32,000 bases of DNA. Source: an uncultured Oscillospiraceae bacterium. GTDB lineage: Bacteria; Bacillota; Clostridia; Oscillospirales; Oscillospiraceae. Both the position numbers and the translations under genes were made by a program. The notes below the pieces were generated by a model. That model was not told the origin of the DNA. It did no database searches and saw nothing but the letters and a program-made list of their open reading frames with translations. Below, in pieces: positions 1-31,780 of this stretch (the stretch's first letter is position 1; each line of letters opens with the position of its first letter). The stretch spans positions 1-32,000 of the forward strand of contig CAKUJA010000005.1 of the NCBI GenBank assembly GCA_934661135.1, written 5' to 3'.

Positions 1-6
1 AACAAG

Positions 7-1899
7 GTGCTGCTCCATCCTGATGTGGAACGAGCGAAGCGGCTCTTGGCGCAGGGCAAGTTTCCGGATTACGAGGATATTTGCCGCGAGATTTTGCTGG
101 TCGAATACCCGGAGGAAGTCCCGCATGAGACTGCCGAGGATTTCGATGAATTGTCGTGGGAACGTGTTCTGGATGATGTGTTTGCAGACGACCCGGAAAA
201 AGGGATGGAGATGTGGCGGCGGCTTCTGGACATCGCAGAACCGTCTCTGAAAACCGACGCTAAAACTGCCGAAAAACTTCTCCCGGATTGGGATTGGCTG
301 GATTCTCCAACCGACGATCAGGCGCTTCCACTTTTGGTCGCGTTGGATGACGAGCGGTTTGTATCGCAGCTTTTTGAGAGCGCGTTCCTCGACAGATTGC
401 AGTTCAATGTTCTGGAGATCTGTCGGGATTGTGGGGAGGAAACGCTGGCGCGGCATTGTATGGACCTTGCACTGAAAAATCCTTGGCTGGAGGAGCGGTG
501 GAGGAAACGGTATACACAGGTCCTTGCGGCTGCACCTTCTTCAAAACGCACAAGGCCACCTGCCCGTGCACTTGCAAGACCGCCTGTCAGTACACCGGCA
601 AAGCCGGCTGGCGAAAGCTATTATCAGTTCTGCAATGTGCAGTTCAAGGAGGATGGAGCGGCGTATGCCTATCTGACCGGGGGAATTTCGCTGAAAGCGG
701 GCGATTTTGTAGTCGTTCCGATCGGCGATCATCAAGCAGAAAAGCTTGCTCGGGTGACAGAGGTGTTCGTTTGCAGCACACAGAATGCGCCATATCCGCC
801 GGAGAAGGCGAAATTTGTGCTCCGCAAGTCTGAACGGACAGCCTTTCCGGAACGCAAAAAGCCGCAGCATCCTGCTCCAAAGCAAGCAGACGTGTCAGCA
901 CCGACTGAATCGAAGCGCGCAGTTCCGCCTGTGCAGTCCGCACCGACCGCAAATCCGCAGAAGTCTGCGCCGACTGTACAATCGGCAATCACACCGCCGA
1001 TCGTCAGCCAGACGCCGACGGAGCCAGAAATAACCGAAAAGAAATCTACGCTGTCAAAGAAGCCGTTCCCGTTTGGGAAGCTCATCGCGGCAGTTCTGGC
1101 AGTAGCCGTGATTGCTGGTATCTCTGTTTCCGTCTCGAACCGCAACAAGCAGAGAGCAGCAGCTTATGACGCAGCCCTGCAAGAGCTGTCAAACGGCAAT
1201 TACACTTCTGCCGAGCAGGACTTCTCGGAGCTTTCCGGCTATCGGGATGCGACATCGCTGTCTGTCTACTGCAAATATGCCGATATGTACAAAGACAGGA
1301 CGGACTACGCAGGCGGGCAGGATGAACTTTCAAACATCACGCTGCAATATGACACGGGCTGGCAGCAGAATATTGACGCGCTGGAAACCCGCGTTAAAAG
1401 CTATAAAGCGGAGAAAGACGCCGCCGAGGAAGCCGAGCGTCAACGCATCGCTGCGGAGAATGCCGCGAAGCGGGAGCAAAGTCTGAAAGATCAGTATTCC
1501 GGAAAACTGCCCGTGGATGGTATGCCCGTGAGTTGCTTGAAGTACACGTCACTCGGATCACCCACCAAAACTGAAAAGTGTCAGTTCTATGACAGCATGG
1601 ATGTCCATAGGCGATACAAAATCCTGCATTGGTACAACAGTGAAGGACAGACCGTAGCATATTGTCATTCTCATCAGCCAAAGGGAGAGTATACAGAAGT
1701 CATTTATGCCTTTACATATTATGAAACGCCCATCGGACGTCCAAACTCTGCCTCTCCGTGGACACCACCGAGTACATCGGGCGGCAACAATTCCGGAAGC
1801 GTCCGCGATGACTACGATAATCCGGAAGACCTCTGGGAAGATAACCAAGATTGGTATGAAGATGAAGACGAAGCATGGGATGAGTGGGAGAATGGTTGA
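7..1899 (+). CDS. hypothetical single-pass membrane protein with acidic Trp/Tyr-rich C-terminal tail (5' end may lie upstream of the window)
   Basis: 630-codon ORF with the frame open back to base 1. Pro/Ala/Ser/Thr/Gln-rich linker, then hydrophobic helix FPFGKLIAAVLAVAVIAGISVSV, a Cys/Tyr-rich distal domain and the tail RDDYDNPEDLWEDNQDWYEDEDEAWDEWENG. No family recognised. Confidence 0.7.
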   Translation: MLLHPDVERAKRLLAQGKFPDYEDICREILLVEYPEEVPHETAEDFDELSWERVLDDVFADDPEKGMEMWRRLLDIAEPSLKTDAKTAEKLLPDWDWLDSPTDDQALPLLVALDDERFVSQLFESAFLDRLQFNVLEICRDCGEETLARHCMDLALKNPWLEERWRKRYTQVLAAAPSSKRTRPPARALARPPVSTPAKPAGESYYQFCNVQFKEDGAAYAYLTGGISLKAGDFVVVPIGDHQAEKLARVTEVFVCSTQNAPYPPEKAKFVLRKSERTAFPERKKPQHPAPKQADVSAPTESKRAVPPVQSAPTANPQKSAPTVQSAITPPIVSQTPTEPEITEKKSTLSKKPFPFGKLIAAVLAVAVIAGISVSVSNRNKQRAAAYDAALQELSNGNYTSAEQDFSELSGYRDATSLSVYCKYADMYKDRTDYAGGQDELSNITLQYDTGWQQNIDALETRVKSYKAEKDAAEEAERQRIAAENAAKREQSLKDQYSGKLPVDGMPVSCLKYTSLGSPTKTEKCQFYDSMDVHRRYKILHWYNSEGQTVAYCHSHQPKGEYTEVIYAFTYYETPIGRPNSASPWTPPSTSGGNNSGSVRDDYDNPEDLWEDNQDWYEDEDEAWDEWENG

Positions 1900-2006: not shown

Positions 2007-2079
2007 TATACACATCAAGCCCTTTTGCAAAGATATAAATTTCTGAAGGAAAGTCGATGAAATATAATCCGGTTGCGCA

Positions 2080-2109
2080 TTGACAAGGCTTGTCAACCTG
2101 AACTAGAGT
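2080..2109 (+). promoter_or_regulatory. putative sigma-A promoter overlapped by a perfect 8-1-8 palindrome (candidate operator of the XRE regulator)
   Basis: TTGACA (2080-2085), 18-nt spacer, TAGAGT (2104-2109). TTGACAAG-G-CTTGTCAA (2080-2096) is a perfect inverted repeat covering the -35. Confidence 0.45.
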
Positions 2110-2147
2110 ATAAACAGGATATGCGCATATCTGCTTGGAGGGATACC

Positions 2148-2981
2148 ATGAAAACAGCTTTGGCGGTGATTCGGACACGCTGTAACTACTCACAAACGGT
2201 CTTGGCTTCTGGGCTTGGTCTTTCGCGTCAGGTCGTCAGTGCGTGGGAAAACGGAAATAAGAAGATCCCCAAGGGACGGCTTACCGAACTTGCTTTGCTG
2301 TTTGGTGTCCCGGTAACGCTTTTAACGACGAAGGAACTTGACGTTGTTGAACGCTGGTGTGACAGGCCGGTGTTTCCCACGCAAAAGCAGGGACGGCAGG
2401 TGTTTTCGTTTGAACCGGTTGGAGAGAATCGGAACGTAATCCTGAACGAACCGTCAGCCCCGATGCCGGCGGTGCAAAGCAGAGATCTGATGCAGCGCAG
2501 AAACTATACCATGCGGAAGCTTGCAGCATGTACGCAGATTCGCGCGGAGCAGCAGACGAAAGATCTGAGCATCGCAGAACCCTGTATCACAATTTTAGAG
2601 CAGATGCGGCGGCTCTTTGATACGGCGTTGACCGCAGAACCGCGTGTTCAGGAACAGATTCTGCGGTTCGTGCTGGAGCAAATTATGCTGCTGTGTCAGG
2701 TGCTTTCCCCGGACGCGCAGGACGCTGCGAACCTTACAGACTGGCAAAGACAGCAGCTTCAGATGCTCCGAACCCATTGGGCCGCTATGAACCGTGAACG
2801 CAGAAAACGAGAACAAAAATATGCGATCACAGAAACAAAGGATATTAAAGAATGCAGTCTGACGGAACGGCTCAACACACTCTACCATCACGCAATGACG
2901 CAGGGAATGGATCGTCGGGATCTGCAGCTCTATCTGGAACGGATTTGGGAGGAGGAATATGAAAGAGCAGATGAGAATTGA
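2148..2981 (+). CDS. XRE-family helix-turn-helix transcriptional regulator with an unrecognised ~200-aa C-terminal region
   Basis: HTH_3-like N-terminus MKTALAVIRTRCNYSQTVLASGLGLSRQVVSAWENGNKKIPKGRLTELALLFGV. ATG 2148 follows GGAGG (2137-2141), so the upstream TTG at 2073 is less likely. The stop overlaps the next gene. Confidence 0.85.
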   Translation: MKTALAVIRTRCNYSQTVLASGLGLSRQVVSAWENGNKKIPKGRLTELALLFGVPVTLLTTKELDVVERWCDRPVFPTQKQGRQVFSFEPVGENRNVILNEPSAPMPAVQSRDLMQRRNYTMRKLAACTQIRAEQQTKDLSIAEPCITILEQMRRLFDTALTAEPRVQEQILRFVLEQIMLLCQVLSPDAQDAANLTDWQRQQLQMLRTHWAAMNRERRKREQKYAITETKDIKECSLTERLNTLYHHAMTQGMDRRDLQLYLERIWEEEYERADEN

Positions 2982-5238
2982 ATTACATAACGAAACAGAA
3001 TATACAGAGCGTATTTCATTTCAGGATATTTGGGCACACGCAAGTAGGCTGAAGTATGCCGGTTGCCGCGTGGCTGCAATCACAGACCGAAATTCGGTGG
3101 ATGGTATTCACATGGCAGAGCACGAGTTTATGCGGAGAGGAATCCAGCCAATTTACGGCGTAACGCTCAACTGCATCGATGTTGATGACCGCTATGATGT
3201 GGTATTGCTCGCGGCAAATCTGACGGGCCGTGACAATATTTTTCGTTTGATCGAACTGCTGGAGAGCAACCGGTTTTCGTTTGGGCGTGCCGTTACCAGA
3301 GAACAGCTGGATGCCCATCGCAAGGGAATCCTTCTGGGGGCGGCTGCAAAGAACGGTCAGATCGTTCGTGCCATTCTGCATCGGCGGGATCAAAGGTATC
3401 TGGAGACGATCACGCAAGACTACGACTATCTGGAATTTACCAGTGAACCTTACGATATTGCCGCGACGGTGGTTCATCTTGCCGCGCAGGGAAATCTGCC
3501 GCTGTGCGCCGTCCAGTATGCCGTGCTGAACGAGCCAAGTGTGCCGCTGGAGAAATATGCCTACCTGACACTCTGCCGTTATTACTGGCAGGAGGCAGAT
3601 GCACAGTATTTCAAAACGACAGAGGAGCTGCGCGAGGAAATGAACGCTCTGTATGTTCTGCCCGTGGAAAAGCTGGTCGGTCAAAAGGTCTTGTACGATG
3701 ATCCGCTTAGAATTTTTGCGCGCATAGAACCAATGCCGACGTTAGAAGAAATTCTTTGTACAAGCGACGTCTCTTTTCATGCAGCGCGTATGAAGGAACT
3801 GAACATTCGTGTAAATTGTGCAATGCAGGAAAAATACGGTACACATTGCCCGGCGCAGGTTTCAGAACGCGTTCAAAGGGAACTGACGGAAATCAATGCG
3901 CAAAAGCAGGCGCATGTGATGTTGATGCTTGCAGATATGGCAAAACAGGGCGGCAACTCACAGGAACATATGATGGTTGCCGGAGAATACGCAAATTTTG
4001 AAATTCTCTATCTGCTTGGTGTCACGGAGCTTGACCCGCTGCCGCGCCATATTTATTGCAGGGTTTGCGGGTGTTGGCTGGAAACACAGGCTGAGATCGG
4101 CGAGAGCGTTGCTTGCCTGCGCTGCGGACAGATGGCTGTTGTATCCGGACTGAATGTACCGTTGGAACCGATACACGCATTATTAAAAGACGGCGCACAC
4201 TTTGAGATTCGTGCCTCTTCTGAACGCATTTCACACTGGAAGCAGGAGCTTGAGGAAGCAAACTGTATTGTATTGCAGGCACAGATGGGAGATCAGAAGC
4301 CACAGGAAGCCAATATGGATGCGCTATATAATATAGCCGCAGAACTCGGGGCCGGGGAATGGCGTAAAGAGCGTGAGTTTACATATCGGTTAACTTCTCA
4401 TCTGCCGCGAAATCGGGACAGCGGCACATCACAGCGATGGCTGTTGCCGAATACGAGCGCGTCGGACTTTATAAAACATCTGCCAGCGCGAAAGATTGCG
4501 AAGAACATTTACCAGCTCGAAATGCAGCCGAGCTATGCGGTTGAATGTGCGAGTGTTTATCCGATTCCGAGCAAAACATTGTCATTCCTTGCGGCCTGCG
4601 AAAAGGCTACCGGTATTTCTGCAAGCGAGATCTTGCTCAACGCGCAGGAGGTTCTTGCATATATCAGAGCGGTTGTGCCGCGTGAAAAAGAGCCGTCGGA
4701 CGCTGCCGTGTATGCGCTTTGGGTATGTGGTTTCAGTCCGGAGGAACCGCATGAAGAAAATGACCTGTACCCATCGGTTCAGGCAGTTGTGCAAAAAATG
4801 CCGCTAAAGAGTTTCGCGGATCTGACGAGAGTCTTTTCGATGCAGCATGGAACGGGAACATGGAAAAACAATGCAGAAAGTCTTTTGGCTACCGGAGCAG
4901 CAACGACGGAACAGGTTATCACCTGCAGAGAAGATGTGATGGAATATCTGTTGGCTCGTGGGGTCGAGAGAGAAACAGCTTATGAAATGATGGAAGGTGT
5001 TCGCAAGGGGCGGGCAGATGCACTTTGGGATCCGAGCAATTCTTCTCCGGACGCCAAGCGACAGCAACAGATTTTGCAGGATTGTGGGGCAGAGGATTGG
5101 TTCATAGAGAGTTGCAGAAAGATAAAATATCTGTTTCCGCGCGCCCACGCAGCGGCCTTTTCTGCAAATTTGATCAGAATCATGTGGTATTGTATTCATG
5201 AACCGGAGTGTGTTGCGCAAATCATGAAAGAACTGTAA
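2959..5238 (+). CDS. PolC-like (DNA polymerase III alpha, Gram-positive type) degenerate paralogue: PHP-like plus Cys4 zinc module plus distal fingers region, lacking exonuclease, most of the palm and the C-terminus
   Basis: 759-codon intact ORF with GGAGGAGG just upstream. Segments collinear with PolC as recalled: IELHNETEY..AAITDRNSVDG..IQPIYGV, VVLLAANLTGRDNIFRLIELL, DYDYLEF, PRHIYCRVCGC..CLRCGQ..GLNVPLE, ITCREDVMEYLLARGVERETAYEMMEGVRKGR, CRKIKYLFPRAHAAAFSANLIRIMWY. 23-nt overlap with the XRE gene. Confidence 0.85.
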   Translation: MKEQMRIELHNETEYTERISFQDIWAHASRLKYAGCRVAAITDRNSVDGIHMAEHEFMRRGIQPIYGVTLNCIDVDDRYDVVLLAANLTGRDNIFRLIELLESNRFSFGRAVTREQLDAHRKGILLGAAAKNGQIVRAILHRRDQRYLETITQDYDYLEFTSEPYDIAATVVHLAAQGNLPLCAVQYAVLNEPSVPLEKYAYLTLCRYYWQEADAQYFKTTEELREEMNALYVLPVEKLVGQKVLYDDPLRIFARIEPMPTLEEILCTSDVSFHAARMKELNIRVNCAMQEKYGTHCPAQVSERVQRELTEINAQKQAHVMLMLADMAKQGGNSQEHMMVAGEYANFEILYLLGVTELDPLPRHIYCRVCGCWLETQAEIGESVACLRCGQMAVVSGLNVPLEPIHALLKDGAHFEIRASSERISHWKQELEEANCIVLQAQMGDQKPQEANMDALYNIAAELGAGEWRKEREFTYRLTSHLPRNRDSGTSQRWLLPNTSASDFIKHLPARKIAKNIYQLEMQPSYAVECASVYPIPSKTLSFLAACEKATGISASEILLNAQEVLAYIRAVVPREKEPSDAAVYALWVCGFSPEEPHEENDLYPSVQAVVQKMPLKSFADLTRVFSMQHGTGTWKNNAESLLATGAATTEQVITCREDVMEYLLARGVERETAYEMMEGVRKGRADALWDPSNSSPDAKRQQQILQDCGAEDWFIESCRKIKYLFPRAHAAAFSANLIRIMWYCIHEPECVAQIMKEL

Positions 5239-5551: not shown

Positions 5552-5582
5552 GCAGATCCTGCTCCGCAATAGACAAAGAATA
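5552..5582 (+). repeat. 31-bp motif copy A (candidate att/arm-type site)
   Basis: gcagatcctgctccgcaatagacaaagaata. It is 27/31 identical to copy B and 24/31 to copy C. It abuts the terminator hairpin of the DUF6076-like gene. Confidence 0.5.
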
Positions 5583-5610
5583 CGCGGCCGGTGCATCCAC
5601 CGGCCGCGTA
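5581..5610 (-). terminator. intrinsic terminator of the DUF6076-like gene
   Basis: Perfect 13-bp stem tacgcggccggtg / caccggccgcgta with a 4-nt loop. On the minus strand it is followed by TTCTTTGTCT. It lies 4 nt after the stop codon. Confidence 0.7.
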
Positions 5611-5613
5611 ATT

Positions 5614-6573
5614 TTATATTTTTGAGTCGCGGAGCCACTGCTGGAATTGCTCCAGCGAGATGATCTCGCGGTCACACTTCTTCTTTTCTTCTCTGGCCTG
5701 CTCGCTCCACGCATAAAACTGCTCGTCGGTGATGCGCCCGGCTTTGATCCACGCGAAGCGCTTTTTGTACTCCTTGCGGTACGCCTTGAAAATGGGATCG
5801 TCGGTCTGTTTTTTCGTCCACTGCCGGAACGCGCCGATCTCGCGGCAGCGCTGCTCACCGTACTTTACCGGGCGCTCGCAGTACTCCGCACTCACGCGGC
5901 CGGTCTGCGGAAACCAGCGGCCGCAGTTCTTGCAGCGGCGGACAGTCACGCCGCGCTCAACGCAGCTTCGCAGCGAATAGTCGATCATGTCCCGCACGGC
6001 GGACGAGTATAAAACAGGCGCGCAGCGGCCCGGTTCGACCGGCTCGAAGCTCAGCGGGATCGGCTTAAATCGGAACAGCTCCGGATTTCTCGGCTGGTCG
6101 TAATGGTAGTTTTGCGCCGCCTGTTTCTGCGGCTCACGACCGGCGGAATCCACGTCCAGCACGCATTCCAAAAACTTCTCAACCTGCTTCCTTGTCTCTG
6201 AAAACTGTGTTACAAACTCCTTTAAGTCCAAAGCAATCGCCTGAATTTCCGCTTGATCGTAGCCATTTACGGAAAAACAGCCGAAGCAGCGCGTATATAA
6301 AATACGGAAATAAATGTGCTTCTCGGCCAGCACGCCGAGCTCCACCATCGCGGCTGTATATGCTTCACGGTCGCGGCTCTCAACGAAGCGTTCCCAATTC
6401 ACGCTGATGCGTTCCAGCATCGGCGTGATTTCTTTTTCGTCCAGTTCCAGAAACGTCAGCAGACTTTCCAAAAACGGAAGCTCCAGCTGCTTGGACGGCA
6501 GCCCCTGCATTCCGAACGCATCGTTTTCAAAAAATTCTTTCTCACCGGAGAAATACATCTTTGCATACCACAT
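5614..6573 (-). CDS. DUF6076-like protein typical of Clostridial integrative elements (Cys-rich C-terminal half)
   Basis: C-terminal CKNCGRWFPQTGRVSAEYCERP..CREIGAFRQWTKK..FKAYRKEYKKRFAWIKAGRITDEQFYAWSEQA pattern, recalled from proteins annotated DUF6076. ATG 6573 sits 6 nt after GAGGTG, so the GTG at 6582 is less likely. Confidence 0.8.
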   Translation of the reverse strand: MWYAKMYFSGEKEFFENDAFGMQGLPSKQLELPFLESLLTFLELDEKEITPMLERISVNWERFVESRDREAYTAAMVELGVLAEKHIYFRILYTRCFGCFSVNGYDQAEIQAIALDLKEFVTQFSETRKQVEKFLECVLDVDSAGREPQKQAAQNYHYDQPRNPELFRFKPIPLSFEPVEPGRCAPVLYSSAVRDMIDYSLRSCVERGVTVRRCKNCGRWFPQTGRVSAEYCERPVKYGEQRCREIGAFRQWTKKQTDDPIFKAYRKEYKKRFAWIKAGRITDEQFYAWSEQAREEKKKCDREIISLEQFQQWLRDSKI

Positions 6574-7020
6574 GGTCATCACCTCAAATATGGACTAATT
6601 GTAAATTATAAATGTAATAGTCTTGACAAATATACATCCCTATGTTACCTTAAAACCAGAAAGCTGTCTAAATCATTTTATCATAGTCTAACACCGCATA
6701 GACAGCTTGTCAACGGTAAGTTGCCCTGTACCTTGAAAATTTCACACCCATCTCCAAAGACGATACTCGCCGGGGAAGTATGCCGCGACGCTGCGAAAGC
6801 AGCCAGCGTACCAAGGCGAAGCCAACGCTGTGTGCGTCAACAAAAGGCCGCAGGGCAGGAACGGGTATGGAGGATGGTAACCGGAAAAGAAAAAAGCCGT
6901 CCGGCTGCTGCAACAGTCGGACGGCGCGCCGCGTTTCGGAAAACACGGACTGCAACTATGTTAACTTTAACAGAGAGACCTCCGAAACGCAAGTTTTTTC
7001 TCTGAAATTTCTAAAATCTG

Positions 7021-7254
7021 ATGGAGGTAAAAAAGACTTTGAACACATCAAGCATCAAGAATTTTGATGAGCTGTCGCTGTTTCTCTACGCGCAGCTCGT
7101 CTCCCGCACGCTGGGCGTTTCGCCGTCAAGCGCCTACGAGCTTCTGCATGAGGATGGCTTCCCGTCACTGCGGATCGGCAGCCGACTGGTCGTGCCGAAG
7201 GAGCAGTTCCGTCTATGGGTGGAGCGGCAGACAGGAGACGCACATGAAGAATAA
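7021..7254 (+). CDS. excisionase-type (MerR/HTH_17-like) DNA-binding protein
   Basis: 77 aa. LVSRTLGVSPSSAYELLHEDGFPSLRIGSRLVVPKEQFRLWVERQ matches the excisionase-family HTH pattern. An alternative in-frame TTG start at 7039 is possible. Confidence 0.75.
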   Translation: MEVKKTLNTSSIKNFDELSLFLYAQLVSRTLGVSPSSAYELLHEDGFPSLRIGSRLVVPKEQFRLWVERQTGDAHEE

Positions 7255-7693
7255 ATACTATACCTCGCGCGATCCAATCAAAAACTACTTTCCTCTGCCG
7301 AACGAAGTTTTCAATCTCGGTCTTTCGCCGGGCGCGTTGGCGGTCTACAGCTATCTGATGTACATTGAGGATCGGACGACATATCAGTGCCATGCAAGCT
7401 ACAAAACGATTGGTAAAGCCGTCAATATGAGCCCGAACACCGTGCGAAAATATGTGACCGAGCTGGTCGAACGAGGGCTGATTCAGACAGAGCGCACGAC
7501 GATTATCACACAGGACGGCCGAAAGCAAAATGGGAGCCTTTTGTACACACTCCTGCCCATTCAGTTCTCCATCCAGCAGTTTTATGAGCAAAAGCTCGCA
7601 AAGCTGGACGCGGAATGTGAGCAGGAACGCATCCGAAAGCGGTTGGAAGCGTTCCAACTGGCGCAGCAGGAAACCGCCCGTCCACCAGCGTGA
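7244..7693 (+). CDS. winged-helix DNA-binding protein, replication-initiator-like
   Basis: MKNKYYTSRDPIKNYFPLPNEVFNLGLSPGALAVYSYLMY..YKTIGKAVNMSPNTVRKYVTELVERGLI is a wHTH pattern common in element-borne Rep/DnaD-like proteins. ATG 7244 follows GGAG and overlaps the upstream stop by 11 nt. Confidence 0.8.
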   Translation: MKNKYYTSRDPIKNYFPLPNEVFNLGLSPGALAVYSYLMYIEDRTTYQCHASYKTIGKAVNMSPNTVRKYVTELVERGLIQTERTTIITQDGRKQNGSLLYTLLPIQFSIQQFYEQKLAKLDAECEQERIRKRLEAFQLAQQETARPPA

Positions 7694-8052
7694 GCCGCGT
7701 GTGGCGGCTGTGTCCGATTTTCCGGACACAGCCGGGCGCGTACCCACCGAAAGCTCAAAACCGGACGTTGCGCCGCCGTGCGGGAGCGTTGCGGGAACGC
7801 CAAGCACAGAAGAAGGACACCTGCGGGCAATTTCGGACTGAGAGCAAAGCCGCAAGCGGCGAAGCAGGAGAAAGCCAAGGTGTCGTGCGCGCACCTTGGC
7901 GAACACATCTGCCCGCAGTGCGGGCAGTTTGGGGCTTTCACGCAGGGGTCGTTGAGAGGGCAAAAACAGCCCCATTGGGGTCGGAAGCGCAAATAATCCC
8001 GCTGTTTCAAGGAAAACAGCGGGGTCACACACAAAATTGGAGGGAAATTAGC
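7694..8052. other. hairpin-dense noncoding region (candidate origin: oriT, ori or sso)
   Basis: Perfect stems: 7706-7733 (11 bp), 7874-7900 (9 bp), palindrome 7909-7927 (9-1-9) and 7998-8023 (10 bp), plus shorter ones at 7694-7708 and 7848-7860. The in-frame ORF extension across it is Arg-rich low complexity. Confidence 0.45.
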
Positions 8053-8457
8053 ATGGCAAACAGGAAAATTAAATTTCCGCTTTGGCTTATGCCGGAAACA
8101 AAGGCGACAGTTGAACGTCTCTACCGGCAGAATGGATGCAGCAGCCAGAGCGAGTTCATGGAAAGGGCAATTCAGTTCTACTGCGGTTATCTGCAAAGCG
8201 AATACGCTGGAGACTTCCTGCCGAAGATCCTCGGCGAAACGCTGGAGGCCATCCTCAGTATGTTCGGTGACCGCATCGGGCGGTTACTGTTCAAGCAGAC
8301 CGTGGAGCACAATGTGATGAACCACATTCTCGCCAGCGATACGGATATTGATGCCGCGACATATCAGAAGATGCGAGGCATGAGCTATCAGGAAGTCGTG
8401 CAGACACATGGACAGATTTCATTCCCGGAGGTCCTGCGGAAGGAGAAGGCACTCTGA
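8053..8457 (+). CDS. ribbon-helix-helix-like small DNA-binding protein (hypothetical)
   Basis: 134 aa. MANRKIKFPLWLMPETKATVERLYRQNGCSSQSEFMERAIQFY resembles an RHH/CopG-like N-terminus. GGAGGG lies 8 nt upstream of ATG 8053. Confidence 0.7.
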   Translation: MANRKIKFPLWLMPETKATVERLYRQNGCSSQSEFMERAIQFYCGYLQSEYAGDFLPKILGETLEAILSMFGDRIGRLLFKQTVEHNVMNHILASDTDIDAATYQKMRGMSYQEVVQTHGQISFPEVLRKEKAL

Positions 8458-8468
8458 GCGAACACGGT

Positions 8469-8499
8469 TCAAAATCTGCACCGCCATAGACAAAGAAAA
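8469..8499 (+). repeat. 31-bp motif copy C (candidate att/arm-type site)
   Basis: tcaaaatctgcaccgccatagacaaagaaaa. It is 24/31 identical, ungapped, to copy A. It lies ~100 bp upstream of the first recombinase gene and is followed by an 8-bp stem hairpin at 8530-8558. Confidence 0.45.
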
Positions 8500-8602
8500 C
8501 CGAAATGATAACTTTCTGATAACTCTCCGCGCGGGAGGTTGCTATTGTATCTCCCGCGTGATAGTTGTTAGAGAAAAGACATAAAAGAAAGGAGTTCTGC
8601 AT

Positions 8603-9802
8603 ATGGGAAAACGGCGACCGTCCGGAGACGGGATGGTCAGGAAGCGCGACGATGGGCGCTGGGAAGGGCGCATCGTCGTGGGGCACAAGGCAAACGGCGA
8701 CCCGATCTTCCGGCACGTCTACGCGAAGACGCAGAAAGCGCTGACGGAAAAGCTGCACCAGAGCATTGAATGCTATCAGGACGTGGAGCTGACCGAGGAC
8801 AGCCGCATGACGCTGGGCGAGTGGCTGGACCGCTGGCTTGCGGAATACAAGGACGGCACGATCCGGTCGGGCACGCTGGAAGGCTACCGCAATTATATCG
8901 AAAACTACATCAAGCCGCAGCTCGGCGGCAAGCAGGTTTCGCTCATCACGACGCAGGACGTGCAGCGGATGTACCGGCGGCTGAAATCCGGCGGGCGTGT
9001 GCGCGAGGACGCCGAGGGCAGTAAGCGCCTCTCCGACTCGACCGTGCGGCACATCCACACGATGCTGCACGGCGCGATGAAGGCTGCGGTGCAGGCGCAC
9101 ATCATTCCGAAAAATCCGACCGAGAACGCGACTGCGCCGAAATCCAACTACAAGCCGATGCAGGTACTGAACGAACAGGAGCTGGACACGTTCCTGCAAG
9201 CGGTTCAGAAGGACGATATCTGGCGGGATTTCTTCTACACGGAGCTTATGACCGGCCTGCGGCGCGGCGAGATCTGCGCGCTCATGTGGCGCAACTTCGA
9301 CGCGAAGGCCGGGACGCTCGGAATCTCCCGGACGCTGCACAGCAAGGGGCAGGGCATCTACGCCCTCGGCGACACGAAAACGAGCCAGGGCAACCGCACG
9401 ATCATCCTGCCGGAAAGCGTCGCGGCGCTGCTGCGGGCGCGGAAGAAAGCCTCCATCAGCCAATGGATTTTTCCACAGCCGACCAGCCCGGAACTGCCGA
9501 TGAATCCGGGGACAGCATACCGGCGGCTCAAAACGCTGCTGGAGGAAGCGGGCCTGCCGAGCATTCGCTTCCATGATCTTCGTCATACATTCGCGACACA
9601 CGCCCTCACCAGCGGCGTGGACGCGAAAACGCTGGCGGGGATTCTGGGTCACACGAACGCCAGCTTCACGCTCGACACCTACACGCACGTCACGCCGGAT
9701 ATGCGCGAAGCCGCGGGCGGCATCGTCGGCGGCTTCATGGAGGATTTATTCGGAAAGGAGTTAAAGCCTTGGCAAAGAAGCGAAAAGCAGGCGACGGACT
9801 GA
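8603..9802 (+). CDS. tyrosine-type site-specific recombinase/integrase (Int1)
   Basis: 399 aa. N-terminal arm-type domain GDGMVRKRDDGRWEGRIVVG. Catalytic signatures TGLRRGE, FHDLRHTFATH, LGHTNASFTLDTYTHV. AGGAG lies 8 nt upstream. Confidence 0.95.
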   Translation: MGKRRPSGDGMVRKRDDGRWEGRIVVGHKANGDPIFRHVYAKTQKALTEKLHQSIECYQDVELTEDSRMTLGEWLDRWLAEYKDGTIRSGTLEGYRNYIENYIKPQLGGKQVSLITTQDVQRMYRRLKSGGRVREDAEGSKRLSDSTVRHIHTMLHGAMKAAVQAHIIPKNPTENATAPKSNYKPMQVLNEQELDTFLQAVQKDDIWRDFFYTELMTGLRRGEICALMWRNFDAKAGTLGISRTLHSKGQGIYALGDTKTSQGNRTIILPESVAALLRARKKASISQWIFPQPTSPELPMNPGTAYRRLKTLLEEAGLPSIRFHDLRHTFATHALTSGVDAKTLAGILGHTNASFTLDTYTHVTPDMREAAGGIVGGFMEDLFGKELKPWQRSEKQATD

Positions 9803-11193
9803 TCCGCCAGCGCGCGGACGGACGCTGGGAGGGGCGGTACGTTGTCGGCTACGACGATCACGGCTACCCGAAAACAAAGGCCGTCTTCGGCAAGAGCAAG
9901 CGCGAGTGCGCCGAAAAGCTGGCGGCGCTCAAGGCGCAGCTCGGCGGCATTCCGTCGGACAAGCTGCGGCCGGAGATGCGCTTTGCCGACTGGCTGGATT
10001 ATTGGTACGAAACGCACTGCAAGCCGAATATCCGAGCCTCGACGCAGTCCGGCTACGAAGACCGCATCCGCCTGCACATCAAGCCGGAGCTGGGCGAGAT
10101 TCCGCTGAACAGGCTGACGCAGAACGACCTGCAGCAGTTTTACGCGCGGCTGAAAAAGAGCGGCCGCAAGACGCGCACGGAATATTATGGTAAGGGGCTG
10201 TCCGATCGCATGGTACGGATGTGTCACGCGACCTGCCGCTCGGCGCTCCAAAGGGCTGTGCAGGATGGACTTATCCGCACCAATCCCGCCGAGGGCTGCA
10301 AGCTGCCGCCCAAAAAGGCGCGTGAGATGCAGGTGCTGGCGCGGGATGAATTGCAGCGGTTTCTTATTCAGGCGCAAGCCGAAGGGTATTACGAACTGTT
10401 CCTGCTGGATCTGGCGACAGGCCTGCGGCGCGGCGAGCTGCTGGCGCTGCAATGGAATGACCTCGATTTTGAAACGGGCGTCCTCACGATCAGCAAACAG
10501 GTCAGCTTGGTTCGCGGCAAGATCGTGATGAGCGTGCCGAAGACGAAAAGCTCCATCCGCAAGCTGGTGCTGCCGCCCGCCGTCGTGCAGGTGCTGAAAG
10601 AATACCGCGAAAGCGTCCACTCCCGCTGGATGTTCCCGTCACCGGTGCTGGAGGATCTGCCGCTCAACCCCGGTTCGGTCTACGACCGATTGCAGCTGAT
10701 TCTGGAGCACGCAAACTGCAAACAGGTGCGTTTTCACGACCTCAGACACACGTTCGCAACGTTGGCGCTGCAAAATGGGATGGACGTGAAAACGCTCTCC
10801 GCCATGCTGGGGCATGTGTCGGCAGCCACGACGCTGGACATTTACACGCACGCAACCTCTGATATGCAGCACGCCGCCGCGCGGAAGATCGACTGCGGCA
10901 TCGGAAAGGCAGAACTCCCGGACGAGCCTGCGCCGCAGGCAAATGCGCCCGCCATCGTTGACTTTCAGCCTTACATGGGCAAAGTCCGCAAGCCCGGAAC
11001 GGGCTGCATCAGCCAGATCAACGACCACCTCTTTGAAGGGCGCTACTCCCCGACATGGATCGACGGTAAAAAGCACGCCCAGAATGTGTATGCGCATACG
11101 CGCGAGGAATGCGAGGAGAAGCTGAAGGTGCTGATCGCAGAGATGAAAGCGGAGCTGGCGGAGTTGAAGCGGCAGAAGACTGACAAGCATTGA
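9769..11193 (+). CDS. tyrosine-type site-specific recombinase/integrase (Int2) with a C-terminal repeat of the arm-type domain
   Basis: 474 aa. TTG start 8 nt after AGGAG (9756-9760), overlapping Int1 by 34 nt. Signatures TGLRRGE, FHDLRHTFATL, LGHVSAATTLDIYTHA. The C-terminal 71 aa (10978-11190) resemble its own N-terminus. Confidence 0.92.
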   Translation: MAKKRKAGDGLIRQRADGRWEGRYVVGYDDHGYPKTKAVFGKSKRECAEKLAALKAQLGGIPSDKLRPEMRFADWLDYWYETHCKPNIRASTQSGYEDRIRLHIKPELGEIPLNRLTQNDLQQFYARLKKSGRKTRTEYYGKGLSDRMVRMCHATCRSALQRAVQDGLIRTNPAEGCKLPPKKAREMQVLARDELQRFLIQAQAEGYYELFLLDLATGLRRGELLALQWNDLDFETGVLTISKQVSLVRGKIVMSVPKTKSSIRKLVLPPAVVQVLKEYRESVHSRWMFPSPVLEDLPLNPGSVYDRLQLILEHANCKQVRFHDLRHTFATLALQNGMDVKTLSAMLGHVSAATTLDIYTHATSDMQHAAARKIDCGIGKAELPDEPAPQANAPAIVDFQPYMGKVRKPGTGCISQINDHLFEGRYSPTWIDGKKHAQNVYAHTREECEEKLKVLIAEMKAELAELKRQKTDKH

Positions 11194-11244
11194 TCGAATG
11201 GACAAATCGCAGCCGCCCGGTGCATGGCCTTCGGATGGCTGCGA

Positions 11245-11273
11245 TTGCGCTTTGGCAGATCGTTTGCTATAAT
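11245..11273 (+). promoter_or_regulatory. putative promoter of the lipoprotein-GNAT cargo operon
   Basis: TTGCGC (11245-11250), 17-nt spacer, TATAAT (11268-11273) with TGc immediately upstream (extended -10). Confidence 0.5.
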
Positions 11274-11304
11274 GAAACAAATCAAAGTTTGTGGAGGTGT
11301 TGGG

Positions 11305-11667
11305 ATGAAACAAATTGTATCTTTATTACTGTCCCTATTTTTGATTGTGGCTTTTTCAGGCTGTCATAATAGTGTAGACACGGGAGACATGCCACCAATG
11401 ATAGATATGTACGGTCAAAAATATGTGGCTCCTAATATGCCTGTTAATGAACTACCACAAGGCTATACTTATTTGGGAGAACTGAGCAAGGAGCAAGCAA
11501 ATGGCACAGGTCTTGAAGGATGTAAAATGTATGCTGTAACGGAATTAAACAGTATTCCTGATTTTTATCTATATCAAGAGTGTGGAACACCGATTGATGA
11601 CAATACTGTGGACAGCGAAAAAATACAATGGGCATATGTTCAGTGGCTGAAAGTAAAAGCAGAATAA
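11305..11667 (+). CDS. small lipoprotein (hypothetical)
   Basis: MKQIVSLLLSLFLIVAFSGC is a signal peptide with a lipobox Cys. GGAGG lies 7 nt upstream of ATG 11305. Composition is AT-rich, unlike the flanks. Confidence 0.75.
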   Translation: MKQIVSLLLSLFLIVAFSGCHNSVDTGDMPPMIDMYGQKYVAPNMPVNELPQGYTYLGELSKEQANGTGLEGCKMYAVTELNSIPDFYLYQECGTPIDDNTVDSEKIQWAYVQWLKVKAE

Positions 11668-11697
11668 GACAAATTCCTGTTCGAGAGAGTAAACGAT

Positions 11698-12141
11698 ATG
11701 ATAATGCGAGAAGTGAACGAAAATAAAAAGCAATTTATATCATTATTGTTATTAGCTGATGAACAAGAGAATATGATTGACCGTTATCTTGAAAAAGGAA
11801 CGATGTATGTGCTTGAAGACAATGATGTAAAAGCTGAATGTGTTGTCACGGATGAAGGTAATGGAATACTTGAAATCAAGAATATTGCGGTTGATCCGAA
11901 ATATCATGGAATGGGATATGGGAAAACATTAATTGACTTTATTGCCAGCAAATATGCAGATGAATATTCTGTTTTGCAAGTCGGAACTGGAGATAGTCCA
12001 CTGACAATACCATTTTATGAAAAATGTGGCTTTGTTCGTTCTCACAAGATTCCAAATTTCTTTACAGACAATTATAATACCCCAATCTATGAGGGCGGTA
12101 TAAAGTTAATAGATATGATATATTTGCAAAGGCGTTTATAA
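11698..12141 (+). CDS. GNAT-family N-acetyltransferase
   Basis: 147 aa. Acetyl-CoA binding pattern ILEIKNIAVDPKYHGMGYGKTLIDF and a YEKCGF motif. AT-rich codon usage. Confidence 0.9.
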   Translation: MIMREVNENKKQFISLLLLADEQENMIDRYLEKGTMYVLEDNDVKAECVVTDEGNGILEIKNIAVDPKYHGMGYGKTLIDFIASKYADEYSVLQVGTGDSPLTIPFYEKCGFVRSHKIPNFFTDNYNTPIYEGGIKLIDMIYLQRRL

Positions 12142-12165
12142 CTTCCAGTTTATCGAATCCGCCGT

Positions 12166-12196
12166 GCAAATCCTGCGCCGCAATAATCAAAGAATA
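12166..12196 (+). repeat. 31-bp motif copy B (candidate att/arm-type site)
   Basis: gcaaatcctgcgccgcaataatcaaagaata. It is 27/31 identical, ungapped, to copy A. It lies between the GNAT stop and the tRNA-Pro terminator. Confidence 0.5.
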
Positions 12197-12227
12197 ACTT
12201 TTTGCAAAAATCAAACAATTTTCATGG

Positions 12228-12264
12228 AAAACCCGCTGAAATCATAAGATTTCGGCGGGTTTTC
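12228..12264. terminator. bidirectional intrinsic terminator (GNAT operon and tRNA-Pro)
   Basis: 13-bp stem acccgctgaaatc / gatttcggcgggt (one G-U pair) with a 4-nt loop. It is flanked by AAAA on the left and TTTTC on the right. Confidence 0.75.
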
Positions 12265-12340
12265 TGGTCCGAGTGACTGGTTTCGAACCAGCGGCCTCGT
12301 GGTCCCAAACCACGCGCTCTACCATCTGAGCTACACCCGG
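12265..12340 (-). tRNA. tRNA-Pro (anticodon UGG), CCA encoded
   Basis: Manual cloverleaf: CCGGGTG-TA-GCTC-AGATGGTA-GAGC-G-CGTGG-TTTGGGA-CCACG-AGGCC-GCTGG-TTCGAAA-CCAGT-CACTCGG-A-CCA. 76 nt, all stems pair, C1:G72 and A73. Confidence 0.92.
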
Positions 12341-30332: not shown

Positions 30333-30408
30333 GCTAGTGTGGCTCAGTCGGTAGAGCAGCTGATTCGTAATCAGCAGGTCGCCGGTTCAAGTCCGGCCAC
30401 TAGCTCCA
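30333..30408 (+). tRNA. tRNA-Thr (anticodon CGU), CCA encoded
   Basis: Manual cloverleaf: GCTAGTG-TG-GCTC-AGTCGGTA-GAGC-A-GCTGA-TTCGTAA-TCAGC-AGGTC-GCCGG-TTCAAGT-CCGGC-CACTAGC-T-CCA. 76 nt. Confidence 0.95.
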
Positions 30409-30570: not shown

Positions 30571-31617
30571 TTACATGACCTGCGCCATAAATTTGCCCAT
30601 CTTTTCGGCGGCACTTTCCTGCATCTGGCGCGTGACGTGGGTGTAGGTGCGGAGTGTGAAGCCTGCATCAAAGTGGCCGAGCATACTCGATACGGTTTTC
30701 ACGTCTATGCCGTTCTGCAATGCCAACGTTGCGAATGTGTGTCGTAAGTCATGAAATCTCAGGTGTTCCAGCCCTGCGTCCTTCAGGATTTTCTTGTGGA
30801 TGTTGACCATCGAGGCCGGATGGTACATCTCGCCTGTTTTCGAGCGCGTGATGTCCGGTTCGCCTGCATTGTTTCGCCCTGCCTGTTTGCTGACGGAGAT
30901 GGTTTTGTTCTCAATGTCCAAGTCTGACCATTGGAGCGCGACCAGCTCGCCCTTGCGTAAGCCGCTGATGAGTTCGAGATAGAACATCGGCAGGACGCCG
31001 CGCTGGTCAGCCGCAGTCAAATAAGACTTGATCTGCTCCGGCGGCAGGATCTTCATTTCGTGCTTTGGGATTTTCGGCGGAACGCAGTCGTCCGCTGGAT
31101 TTCTGACAATCAGGCGTTCTTTCACTGCCCGGTCGAGTGCACTGTGCAGCATCGTGTGGATGCCACGAATCGTCGAATCGCTCAGTCCGGGCTGCTTTCC
31201 CTTCTGCGCTTCACGGAGCCGCCCATGCTCCTGTAGGTCTTTGTAGAGCCATTGCAGGTCGCGGCCTGTCAGTTTTTTCAGCGGAATATCCCCAATGCGC
31301 GGTGTGATGTGCAGTTCGATTCCTCGCCGGTAATACTCCGCAGTCGAGAACCGCAGATGCGGTTTTGCGTATAGCTCGTACCACGTTTGCAGCCATGTGC
31401 CGAGCGTGTACTCGTCTGCCCGACGCACATCGACAGTTTCCGCTTCCGCAACTGCCTTCGCCAGTTTCTCTTTTACCTCTGCTTGTGTCTTGCCGAGGAC
31501 GTTCTTGATCAGCCGTTTCCCTGTCTTTTCATCGTATCCGGCAGTGTAGCGCCCTTCCCAGCGCCCGTCCTTTCGTTTTCGGGTGTTGCCTTCCCCATTT
31601 GCCCGTTTCTTTGCCAT
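30571..31617 (-). CDS. tyrosine-type site-specific integrase (Int3), shorter than Int1/Int2 in the catalytic domain
   Basis: MAKKRANGEGNTRKRKDGRWEGRYTAGY arm-type N-terminus. Signatures SGLRKGE, FHDLRHTFATL, LGHFDAGFTLRTYTHV. ATG 31617 follows GGAGG. About 36 aa are missing between SKTGE and the NP-equivalent segment relative to Int1/Int2. Confidence 0.88.
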   Translation of the reverse strand: MAKKRANGEGNTRKRKDGRWEGRYTAGYDEKTGKRLIKNVLGKTQAEVKEKLAKAVAEAETVDVRRADEYTLGTWLQTWYELYAKPHLRFSTAEYYRRGIELHITPRIGDIPLKKLTGRDLQWLYKDLQEHGRLREAQKGKQPGLSDSTIRGIHTMLHSALDRAVKERLIVRNPADDCVPPKIPKHEMKILPPEQIKSYLTAADQRGVLPMFYLELISGLRKGELVALQWSDLDIENKTISVSKQAGRNNAGEPDITRSKTGEMYHPASMVNIHKKILKDAGLEHLRFHDLRHTFATLALQNGIDVKTVSSMLGHFDAGFTLRTYTHVTRQMQESAAEKMGKFMAQVM

Positions 31618-31780
31618 GTCTGTGCCTCCTTCGTTTTGGTAGCACAAACAACTACCACAGAAAGGGCGCAAAGTCTACTGATTTTTTCGGAAGATCGGAA
31701 TATTTTTTCTGCTTTCGCGTGCACCCAAAAGCCCTATTCTTTGTTTACTGCGGCGCAGTTTTTGACTCTGACAAATGATG

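Follow-up and report, generated by a model that had tools for sequence, protein, structure and literature searches.

A coupled XRE regulator and PolC-derived gene pair, apparently without polymerase chemistry, on mobile elements of Clostridia

A 32,000-nucleotide stretch of contig CAKUJA010000005.1 (assembly GCA_934661135.1, an uncultured Oscillospiraceae bacterium), here called the window, carries near its start a gene for a 277 amino acid (aa) XRE-family protein followed directly by a gene for a 759-aa relative of the replicative DNA polymerase PolC. We show that bases 2071-5238 are a self-contained, translationally coupled two-gene operon, designated the cassette. We are highly confident of the descriptive part of this account, namely that the cassette is an operon of a coupled XRE protein and a full-fold, catalytically dead PolC paralogue that resides on mobile elements; the mechanism proposed further on is far more tentative. 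A first-pass annotation, made from the letters of the window, had described a domain-deleted and apparently dead PolC-like protein coupled to an XRE regulator, and most of that description survives the follow-up reported here. The features of the cassette are as follows, in window positions.

2071-2098, plus strand: operator-like element GGTTGCGCATTGACAAGGCTTGTCAACC, holding the -35 hexamer TTGACA (2080-2085) and the inverted repeat TTGACAAG/CTTGTCAA (2080-2096)
2104-2109, plus strand: -10 hexamer TAGAGT, 18 nucleotides (nt) past the -35; promoter scan score 10/12
2118-2131, plus strand: GATATGCGCATATC, a perfect palindrome of 14 nt, covering roughly +3 to +16 of the predicted transcript
2148-2981, plus strand: XRE-family partner, 277 aa, comprising a helix-turn-helix (HTH, aa 1-60), a beta hairpin (aa 71-88) and a C-terminal helical domain (aa 107-276)
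2947-2955, plus strand: ribosome-binding site of the PolC-like gene (GGGAGGAGG, GGAGG), located inside the XRE gene near its 3' end
2959-3738, plus strand: PHP domain without exonuclease insert (PolC-like aa 1-260); one of nine metal ligands kept (H10)
3739-4158, plus strand: palm segment 1 and Cys4 zinc module at aa ~366-392 (PolC-like aa 261-400); loop GSRGSVGSS degenerate (VAGEYANFE)
4159-4578, plus strand: palm and thumb, fold kept, diverged (PolC-like aa 401-540); DxD reads H-F-E, followed by a nearly invariant Arg; Tyr at the Asp3 position
4579-5238, plus strand: fingers and stop (PolC-like aa 541-759), ending just short of the clamp-binding and (HhH)2 region of PolC
5581-5610, no strand assigned: GC-rich hairpin with a 13-bp stem and T runs on both strands, likely the bidirectional terminator of the operon and of a convergent DUF6076 gene

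The second gene encodes a complete PHP and Pol III core derived from PolC

Open reading frame (ORF) 2959-5238 runs on the plus strand through 759 codons without interruption, and the collinearity with PolC claimed for it is confirmed. In a phmmer search of PDB the protein matches the PolC of Geobacillus kaustophilus, 3f2b, at E 1.8e-43 and 9qpc at E 3.2e-40, while DnaE-type enzymes appear at E values of 0.015 or above only. Pfam recognizes PHP at aa 9-152, the NTPase segment of DNA_pol3_alpha at 284-364 and the finger domain at 607-687. The top NCBIfam model is the PolC equivalog NF001688, with 229.3 bits (below the cut-off of 873), and TIGR01405 gives 218.8 bits (below the cut-off of 1043). 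A profile built from 23 family members (A1), which also served as input for an AlphaFold2 model, aligns to 3f2b in one unbroken piece, profile positions 2-743 corresponding to residues 115-880 of the 1041-residue chain, at E 2.8e-87. The model has a predicted local distance difference test (pLDDT) score of 89.5 and a predicted template-modelling score of 0.86, and in it the order of strands and helices over aa 404-551 appears, by eye, to equal that of the palm-thumb-palm segment of PolC. Foldseek superimposes the entire chain on PolC structures with query-normalised template-modelling (TM) scores of 0.77-0.81, compared with about 0.65 for DnaE enzymes. Sequence identity to real PolCs is about 21-26%. 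The ORF is a genuine PolC derivative, and because the profile alignment is unbroken, the model confident and the superposition one of the whole chain, the protein is a complete PHP plus Pol III core (PHP-palm-thumb-fingers). The earlier statement that most of the palm is absent is set aside by the same three results: palm and thumb are retained, although strongly diverged.

The other absences that had been reported are confirmed by the alignment to 3f2b. It starts downstream of both the N-terminal domain and the OB fold, and it stops before the final ~155 residues of PolC (put at ~150 in the first-pass annotation), which comprise the clamp-binding and (HhH)2 duplex-binding region. Pfam gives no match to RNase_T (PF00929, the DEDDh exonuclease) in the protein, and the ~190-aa DnaQ-type exonuclease insert of PolC is replaced by a 7-residue hairpin. 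At the position of the insert stands the invariant, family-specific hairpin C72-x-D74-xx-D77-R78-Y79 (window 3172-3195), a candidate for an interface or for a new functional site. The Cys4 zinc module is present, as had been claimed, and most PolC-like family members keep this module of PolC. It is cleanly deleted, however, in a subclade of 713-726-aa proteins (P0031-P0046; A1 columns 366-393, window aa ~364-391), and it is therefore dispensable for the function of the family.

The fingers are well conserved with PolC (ITCREDV..., VRKGR, KYLFPRAHAAAF). Among active enzymes, the nearest relative recovered was P0048 (1222 aa), a PolC without exonuclease; Timinskas et al. (PMC3919608) reported this type as restricted to Clostridia and Negativicutes. 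Exonuclease-less PolC has the same PHP-palm-thumb-fingers fold and order as the PolC-like family. P0048 and the family also have the fingers motifs ITCREDV, VRKG and KYLFP.AHA in common, and the short link from PHP-N to PHP-C found in the family is that of exonuclease-less PolC. An exonuclease-less PolC of the P0048 type is a plausible ancestor.

Catalytic residues are lost across the PolC-like family

The active sites were compared across the family in an alignment of the active enzyme P0048 with 48 full-length members, whose identity to the window protein is 28-96%. The first catalytic Asp is Asp in 1 of 48 and otherwise Ser, His or Cys (His in the window). The second is Glu in 32 and Asp in 15, so that 47 of 48 are acidic there (Glu in the window). 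The third is Asp in none, its place being taken by Leu, Arg, Tyr, Ser and others (Tyr in the window). The Asn that follows the former DxD has become Arg in 46 members (window 4207-4215, aa 417-419). Both the triphosphate loop GSRGSVGSS and the palm motif QHPGG are lost in this alignment, and the latter has no equivalent in it. The acidic residue and the Arg may fill the former metal site as a salt-bridge-like pair, as is often the case in pseudoenzymes.

The metal-binding signature of PHP domains consists of nine residues, HHDHEH[C/H]DH (PMC12926913). In the family the first His is kept in all 48 members and ligands 2-9 are lost, being replaced in order by Glu or Asp (acidic in 45 of 48), Leu or Ile, Arg, Thr, Asp or Ala, Ala, a variable residue, and Val or Arg. 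The substitutions read from the window protein alone, HLHT to HNET, ITDH to ITDR, GNVHY to QYAVL and PDIDLNFSG to AHFEIRASS, are all upheld by the alignments. A clamp motif of the QL[SD]LF type is found in none of the 48, while P0048 ends in QMSLFA; with the motif and the clamp-binding C-terminus both missing, the earlier suggestion of a clamp-interaction decoy finds no support. Compared with PolC, then, family members lack the catalytic Asp residues, the nucleotide-binding loop, QHPGG and eight of nine PHP ligands, as well as the N-terminal domain, the OB fold, the clamp-binding motif and the (HhH)2 tail. These losses across 48 members support the view, already taken in the first-pass annotation, of a PolC-derived scaffold that is predicted to have neither polymerase nor PHP chemistry.

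Identity of the window protein to distant members is 43-47% in the PHP domain and 40% in the fingers, and falls to 18% in the palm and thumb, the region of low identity spanning aa ~401-610. The PHP domain contains invariant motifs foreign to PolC, namely C72-x-D-xx-D-R-Y79, GQ..RA, PYD, PLCAVQ and LY.LP.E. Residues that are invariant and specific to the family include H10, D43, C72, D74, D77, R78, Y79, Q134, R137, C183, E237 and R418. Judged by these alignments, the conservation pattern of the family is inverted relative to that of an enzyme.

The PolC-like gene is paired with an XRE-family gene

The 277-aa protein starts at ATG 2148; residues M1 and K2 are invariant in its homologues (alignment A2), and a longer form starting at TTG is unsupported. 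Pfam finds HTH_3 (PF01381) at aa 8-58 with E 3.1e-10 and nothing in this protein outside the HTH. The AlphaFold model has a pLDDT of 85.4. Foldseek, run against PDB and BFVD, aligns the HTH alone and finds no fold match for the C-terminal helical domain, and even its matches to XRE-type HTH domains are weak and non-significant (E > 0.1). Between HTH and helical domain lies an invariant hairpin motif, CDRPxF...GRQVFSF (window 2358-2411, aa 71-88). The pentapeptide QVFSF within it loosely resembles a clamp-binding motif but was rejected as one, having Ser at the hydrophobic fourth position and being predicted to be structured.

With the PolC-like ATG at 2959 and the XRE stop at 2981, the two genes overlap by 23 nt, which indicates translational coupling, and the protein length, the overlap and the good ribosome-binding site (GGAGG, ~2947-2955) are all as first annotated. 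The first-pass annotation had made its reading depend on whether the pair recurs as a unit outside this genome. It does: of the loci whose DNA extends beyond the 5' end of the PolC-like gene, all 20 have a full-length XRE homologue immediately before it in the same orientation. These loci, obtained by four retrieval routes, represent about a dozen distinct contexts (loci and proteins are cited by their L and P numbers). The XRE homologues in the pairs are 33-97% identical across all 277 aa. Wherever the junction can be located the genes overlap by 8-23 nt and an internal GGAGG or GGAG is present, with the exception of L015, in which the XRE gene is shortened. An exhaustive hidden Markov model (HMM) search of 1.84 billion representatives recovered only some 6-8 full-length 50%-identity clusters of the close XRE family, the full-length closest matches all being ~270 aa long, and at the one such match locus examined (P0106, L019) an overlapping PolC-like gene is again present. 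The layout is that of a type II toxin-antitoxin system: the first gene encodes a DNA-binding protein, the second is coupled to it, and palindromes lie at the promoter.

A conserved promoter with a predicted operator precedes the pair

A perfect palindrome had been reported in the XRE promoter, and two are in fact found, TTGACAAGgCTTGTCAA at 2080-2096 and GATATGCGCATATC at 2118-2131. The surrounding element GGTTGCGCATTGACAAGGCTTGTCAACC occurs once in the 32-kb window, where none is expected. Where the other loci include upstream DNA, the XRE gene is preceded by the same architecture, with base changes in one or two of them. In a 13-locus alignment (A4), the T, the A and the final T of the -10 (TAnnnT) and a CA at 2115-2116 are invariant columns, and the CA is likely the transcription start. 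The ~93 nt upstream of the XRE start contain 28 invariant columns in all, although the proteins of these loci are only 31-40% identical. The order of elements in this conserved region is GGTTGCGnnTTGACn6TGTCAACC (2071-2098), an 18-nt spacer, the -10, the CA, the GCGC palindrome and a ribosome-binding site.

At the second palindrome other clades have GATGAGCGCTCATC; the clade of the window differs by two paired changes that preserve the symmetry, and the GCGC core is invariant. The element could be either a second operator or a 5'-terminal mRNA hairpin, and L004, L014 and L016 have G-T wobble positions that give a hint of the hairpin. Rfam detects two tRNAs alone in the window and no RNA element in the leader. 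No further operator copy was found in the 32-kb window, nor elsewhere in the other loci. As each operator motif is single in its locus, autoregulation is favoured and control of other genes is disfavoured.

Selection, abundance and decayed copies

Comparison of the window with L007 (86% aa identity in the PolC-like protein) gives a ratio of nonsynonymous to synonymous substitution rates (dN/dS) of 0.24 for the PolC-like gene, ranging over 0.17-0.29 across four regions, and of 0.20 for the XRE gene. By this measure both genes of the cassette are under purifying selection, and this includes the degenerate palm of the PolC-like protein. Intact PolC-like ORFs persist down to 28-31% identity. Among clusters of metagenome sequences at 90% identity, the largest hold 538 members for the PolC-like protein and 808 for the XRE partner.

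Decayed copies exist as well. The PolC-like gene of L008 (1046-2620) is interrupted by an in-frame stop near codon 458 and shows a deletion at its 3' end, with homology ending after aa 525, that of L016 (2198-4342) is broken into two ORFs, and a cluster of truncated proteins (P0017, residues 1-456) has 53 member sequences. In L008 and L016, where the PolC-like gene has decayed, the XRE gene is intact; in L015 (159-911) it is the XRE gene that is shortened, to 250 aa.

Relatives of the XRE partner form a wider regulator family

A search of representatives also found distant XRE relatives of ~230-350 aa ('MNGL.YIR..CN.S..ELA...'; E 1e-27 to 1e-13), in which the HTH, the hairpin region and a portion of the helical domain of the XRE partner recur. 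In L017 and L018, loci with downstream DNA, these relatives stand alone, with no overlapping gene downstream. Stand-alone relatives of ~280 aa carry GGTTGAC...GTCAACC before their own genes, at 541-564 in L017 (a near-perfect palindrome) and at about 150-177 in L018. This points to a broader family of autoregulated regulators in Clostridia with an HTH and a helical domain. Since the stand-alone relatives have the same operator, the XRE partner and its promoter appear to be descended from an autoregulated stand-alone regulator, and the gene for the dead PolC would seem to have been added downstream of it.

One distant relative, P0248 (385 aa; L020 6001-7158), has a C-terminal DnaA N-terminal domain (PF11638, aa 307-370, E 2.4e-8). 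It is a single gene that does not adjoin dnaA. In this single case the regulator family is linked a second time to a non-catalytic module of a replication protein.

The cassette rides on integrative elements in Clostridia

The remaining features of the window place the cassette on an accessory element, as the first-pass annotation had recognized. They are listed below.

1-1899, plus strand: large membrane-anchored protein gene, cut by the window start; an optional neighbour, not a core part
5614-6582, minus strand: DUF6076 protein, 322 aa, with a Cys-rich RCKNCGRWF motif; convergent with the cassette, not conserved beside it elsewhere
7021-7254: excisionase-like HTH_17 gene, carrier element
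7244-7693: HTH_36 replication-initiator-like gene, carrier element
8603-9802, plus strand: tyrosine integrase, carrier element
12265-12340, minus strand: tRNA-Pro (TGG), probable attachment site of the element
30333-30408, plus strand: tRNA-Thr (CGT)
30571-31671, minus strand: second tyrosine integrase

The remainder of the carrier element (5614-12340) also contains a GNAT gene. The segment with the cassette has a GC content of ~50% or lower, against ~60% in the flanking chromosome, and beyond the element follow gltX, spoIVA, sipL, an Fe-hydrogenase and an amylase, which belong to a Clostridial chromosome. Both tRNA genes have a tyrosine-integrase gene at their 3' side, and it therefore seems that two distinct integrated elements have their ends in the window, on either side of a stretch of chromosome.

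The product of the gene that opens the window has a proline-rich linker, one transmembrane helix and an acidic C-terminal tail, and finds no match in Pfam, NCBIfam, PADLOC or PHROGs. Its homologues lie upstream of cassettes of different subclades (L007 7-1977, L012 45-2633, L016 19-942), and a 237-aa fragment lies downstream of the cassette in L001/L009 (L001 4850-5563, minus strand). It was rejected as a third conserved gene of the cassette, being present in a subset of loci only, and may be an optional third component or co-travelling cargo.

Hosts of the family among genome records are Oscillibacter valericigenes, Vescimonas, and metagenome-assembled genomes of Oscillospiraceae and Clostridia; two bins labelled 'Bacteroidaceae' are probably mis-binned. 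An integrase adjoins the cassette in L001/L009, and two tandem tyrosine integrases lie upstream of it in L022 and L023. In one subclade the cassette is followed directly by a cluster of HTH_17, SNF2 helicase, DUF4391, N6/N4 methylase and ResIII/restriction endonuclease genes (L014 10627-17252; L022 10111-19857; L023 8135-17839), and L014 has in addition a serine recombinase and a transposase upstream. Neighbours elsewhere include a TraG coupling protein (L011), SIR2 (a weak match) and TIR proteins (L010), AbiEii, RtcB, WYL and HIRAN (L006), Macro and WapI (L004), a WYL protein amid housekeeping genes (L005), and a RecD-like helicase, an integrase and PemK (L024). The cassette rides on integrative or conjugative elements and occurs in defence-gene neighbourhoods, in Oscillospiraceae and other Clostridia.

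Other origins were considered and rejected. A search of IMG/VR by pattern plus tblastn found no member, and INPHARED gave only true PolC-like matches at 22-29% identity, against a phage origin; PLSDB yielded genuine polC genes only, against a plasmid origin. As for a catalogued defence system, PADLOC 2.0 has no match for the PolC-like protein and gave generic HTH matches only for the XRE protein.

Proposed mechanism and alternatives

Since neither protein has a recognizable catalytic site and both genes are selected, we infer that the output of the cassette is by binding. The mechanism that we favour, although tentatively and at somewhat less than an even chance, is one of replication interference, in the manner of a toxin-antitoxin, abortive-infection or exclusion system. 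The XRE protein would repress the operon by way of the inverted repeat that covers the -35 of its promoter, and perhaps also of the palindrome at the transcript start, and its C-terminal domain would bind or hold the PolC-like protein. The latter would work by binding, not catalysis: free or in excess, the mimic might compete with the real replicase for a replisome partner or for primed template, so that replication would be stalled, or sensed. The cassette would then act as a toxin-antitoxin, abortive-infection or exclusion module to the benefit of the mobile element. The disruption of the PolC-like gene beside an intact XRE gene in L008 and L016 is a decay pattern like that of toxin-antitoxin systems. 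Two functional ideas of the first-pass annotation, replication control and exclusion, would likewise fit the context data.

Several points weigh against replication interference. Both components are far larger than typical type II toxin-antitoxin proteins. With the clamp motif, (HhH)2, OB fold and N-terminal domain lost, no binding target can be named, and the fingers have a net charge of -9, compared with 0 in active PolC (a charge analysis that is weakly informative), so that strong DNA binding is disfavoured. The distant XRE relatives are stand-alone autoregulators, and the XRE protein could be an ordinary sensor-regulator with the PolC-like protein merely its regulated product or ligand. 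No PADLOC model matches the PolC-like protein, and the frequent position of the cassette beside int and xis suits an element-regulatory role equally well.

Such a role would make the cassette a switch of the mobile element, in which the XRE protein is the element repressor and the dead PolC a sensor or anti-repressor that couples excision, transfer and replication to the replication state of the host, in the manner of ImmR/ImmA. We regard this as rather unlikely. In its favour, integrase or excisionase-like genes stand beside the cassette in the window, L001/L009, L022, L023 and L024; the HTH fold of the XRE protein resembles those of ImmR, Stl and CI-type repressors, although the Foldseek matches are non-significant; stand-alone autoregulator relatives have the same operator; and the relative with a fused DnaA N-terminal domain is a second tie to replication proteins. 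However, the operator motifs occur at the cassette promoter only and at no xis or int promoter of the window or of the other loci, no recombinase is annotated within about 10 kb in L004, L005 and L006, and the carriers are unrelated to one another, being tyrosine-integrase elements, a serine-recombinase element and a TraG-type integrative and conjugative element.

Defence-type neighbours at several loci suggest a different role, that of an anti-phage decoy or guard, in which the dead PolC would bait phage proteins that target or hijack the host replicase, and capture would alter XRE activity or free an effector function. Conservation is highest on the PHP and fingers surfaces (47% and 40% identity) and lowest in the palm that once formed the active site (18%), as expected if it is the PolC-like outer surfaces that matter, and phage collections yielded no family member. 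Neither protein, however, has a recognizable effector domain, the only apparent regulatory target is the cassette itself, none of the PADLOC models gives a match, and a faithful mimic of the host enzyme would be expected to exceed the ~21-26% identity seen with real PolCs. A decoy or guard is in our judgment quite unlikely.

Only a slim chance attaches to the idea that the PolC-like protein has acquired a new activity, for example as a nuclease or phosphoesterase acting through the family-specific invariant residues H10, E/D12, D43, C72, D74, D77, R78, Y79 and C183 in or close to the old PHP pocket, or that it is a structural subunit of an element replication complex. The PHP domain is the most conserved part of the protein, it has new invariant polar motifs foreign to PolC, and position 2 of its motif is acidic in 45 of 48 members; against a new activity, eight of the nine canonical PHP ligands are replaced, mostly by residues that do not coordinate metal (Leu or Ile, Arg, Thr, Ala, Val). 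The replication-initiator-like HTH_36 gene of the window element would suit a structural subunit, but such a gene is missing from most of the other contexts.

That the PolC-like gene is a decaying duplicate of the host polC, or an artefact of assembly or annotation, can be dismissed as having a negligible probability: its catalytic residues are gone and disrupted copies occur in L008 and L016, but 48 intact full-length relatives, drawn from hundreds of metagenome sequences, extend to 28-31% identity, dN/dS is 0.24, the model reaches a pLDDT of 89.5, conservation extends to the partner gene, the promoter, the ribosome-binding site and the gene overlap, and active PolCs are only about 21-26% identical. 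The host polC itself lies outside the window.

Relation to known systems

The cassette combines two known kinds of arrangement, an inactivated polymerase paralogue and an HTH-led two-gene cassette of mobile elements. From PolC itself the second protein differs in its length (~760 aa, against 1200-1450 aa for PolC), and the two genes differ in their setting, polC being an essential chromosomal gene and the PolC-like gene a mobile-element gene behind an XRE gene.

Inactivated polymerases are known from other families. In the B family the non-catalytic modules of Pol epsilon are a case of an inactivated scaffold (PMC6265327), and ImuB is described in PMC12926913 as an inactive Y-family polymerase homologue of the ImuA'-ImuB-DnaE2 mutasome. 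ImuB and the PolC-like protein are both selected polymerase paralogues without catalysis, presumably serving as interaction scaffolds, and both are encoded in small conserved operons. ImuB, however, belongs to another polymerase family, retains a clamp-binding motif, and partners an active polymerase in a LexA-regulated cassette; the PolC-like gene is linked neither to an active polymerase nor to a RecA-like partner, and its partner is a transcription factor.

In gene order the cassette resembles HipBA-type and other XRE-antitoxin modules, in which an XRE-HTH gene is followed by a larger gene that abuts or overlaps it. HipBA-type modules and the cassette also have in common palindromic operators over the promoter, a patchy spread on mobile elements and defence islands, and copies in which the second gene has decayed and the first is still intact. 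HipA, however, is an active kinase and HipB has ~90 aa, whereas the second protein of the cassette has no recognizable catalytic site and its HTH protein has an extra domain of 200 aa. A precedent for a stoichiometric, non-enzymatic toxin of the replisome is SocAB, whose toxin, SocB, binds the sliding clamp and thereby blocks replication. It does so with a clamp-binding motif, and SocA is a protease adaptor, not a repressor; the fold of the PolC-like protein is unrelated to that of SocB, and its family lacks such a motif. ImmR/ImmA of ICEBs1 and Stl of the Staphylococcus aureus pathogenicity islands resemble the cassette in having an XRE-type mobile-element repressor near int and xis that is controlled via a protein partner. 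ImmA is a metalloprotease and Stl binds phage proteins, whereas the partner in the cassette is a dead polymerase, and no operator was found outside the promoter of the cassette.

The first-pass annotation knew of no described system with this two-gene layout, and none was found in the literature and databases searched: the full-text searches of the literature gave no description of an inactivated PolC or C-family group or of a pair of XRE and short-PolC genes, and the sources searched contain no names for the two proteins. Two large censuses of bacterial polymerases (PMC3919608, PMC12926913) state that sequences without an intact active site, diverged or truncated, were discarded. PMC11963600 concerns genuine PolC variants of Oscillospiraceae and not the PolC-like family.

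Significance

The PolC-like family is common in human-gut metagenomes, strictly coupled to its dedicated repressor and carried by mobile elements. It is possible, although on the whole doubtful, that this is the first inactivated family of C-family polymerases and that a stoichiometric replicase mimic with a dedicated XRE repressor represents an unrecognized class of replication-targeting addiction, exclusion or defence cassette. If so, the members of the wider XRE family would be transcription factors that sense the replication machinery or act on it. Should the dead PolC act on the replisome, it would give mobile elements a new route to control or poison the replication of a host or competitor, and it would be a natural probe of the interaction surfaces of PolC in Clostridia, whose replisome of PolC and DnaE1 is still uncharacterized and in which PolC is a drug target. 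Even if the function should prove to be regulatory, the conserved promoter and operator together with the conserved partner would make the cassette a tractable system.

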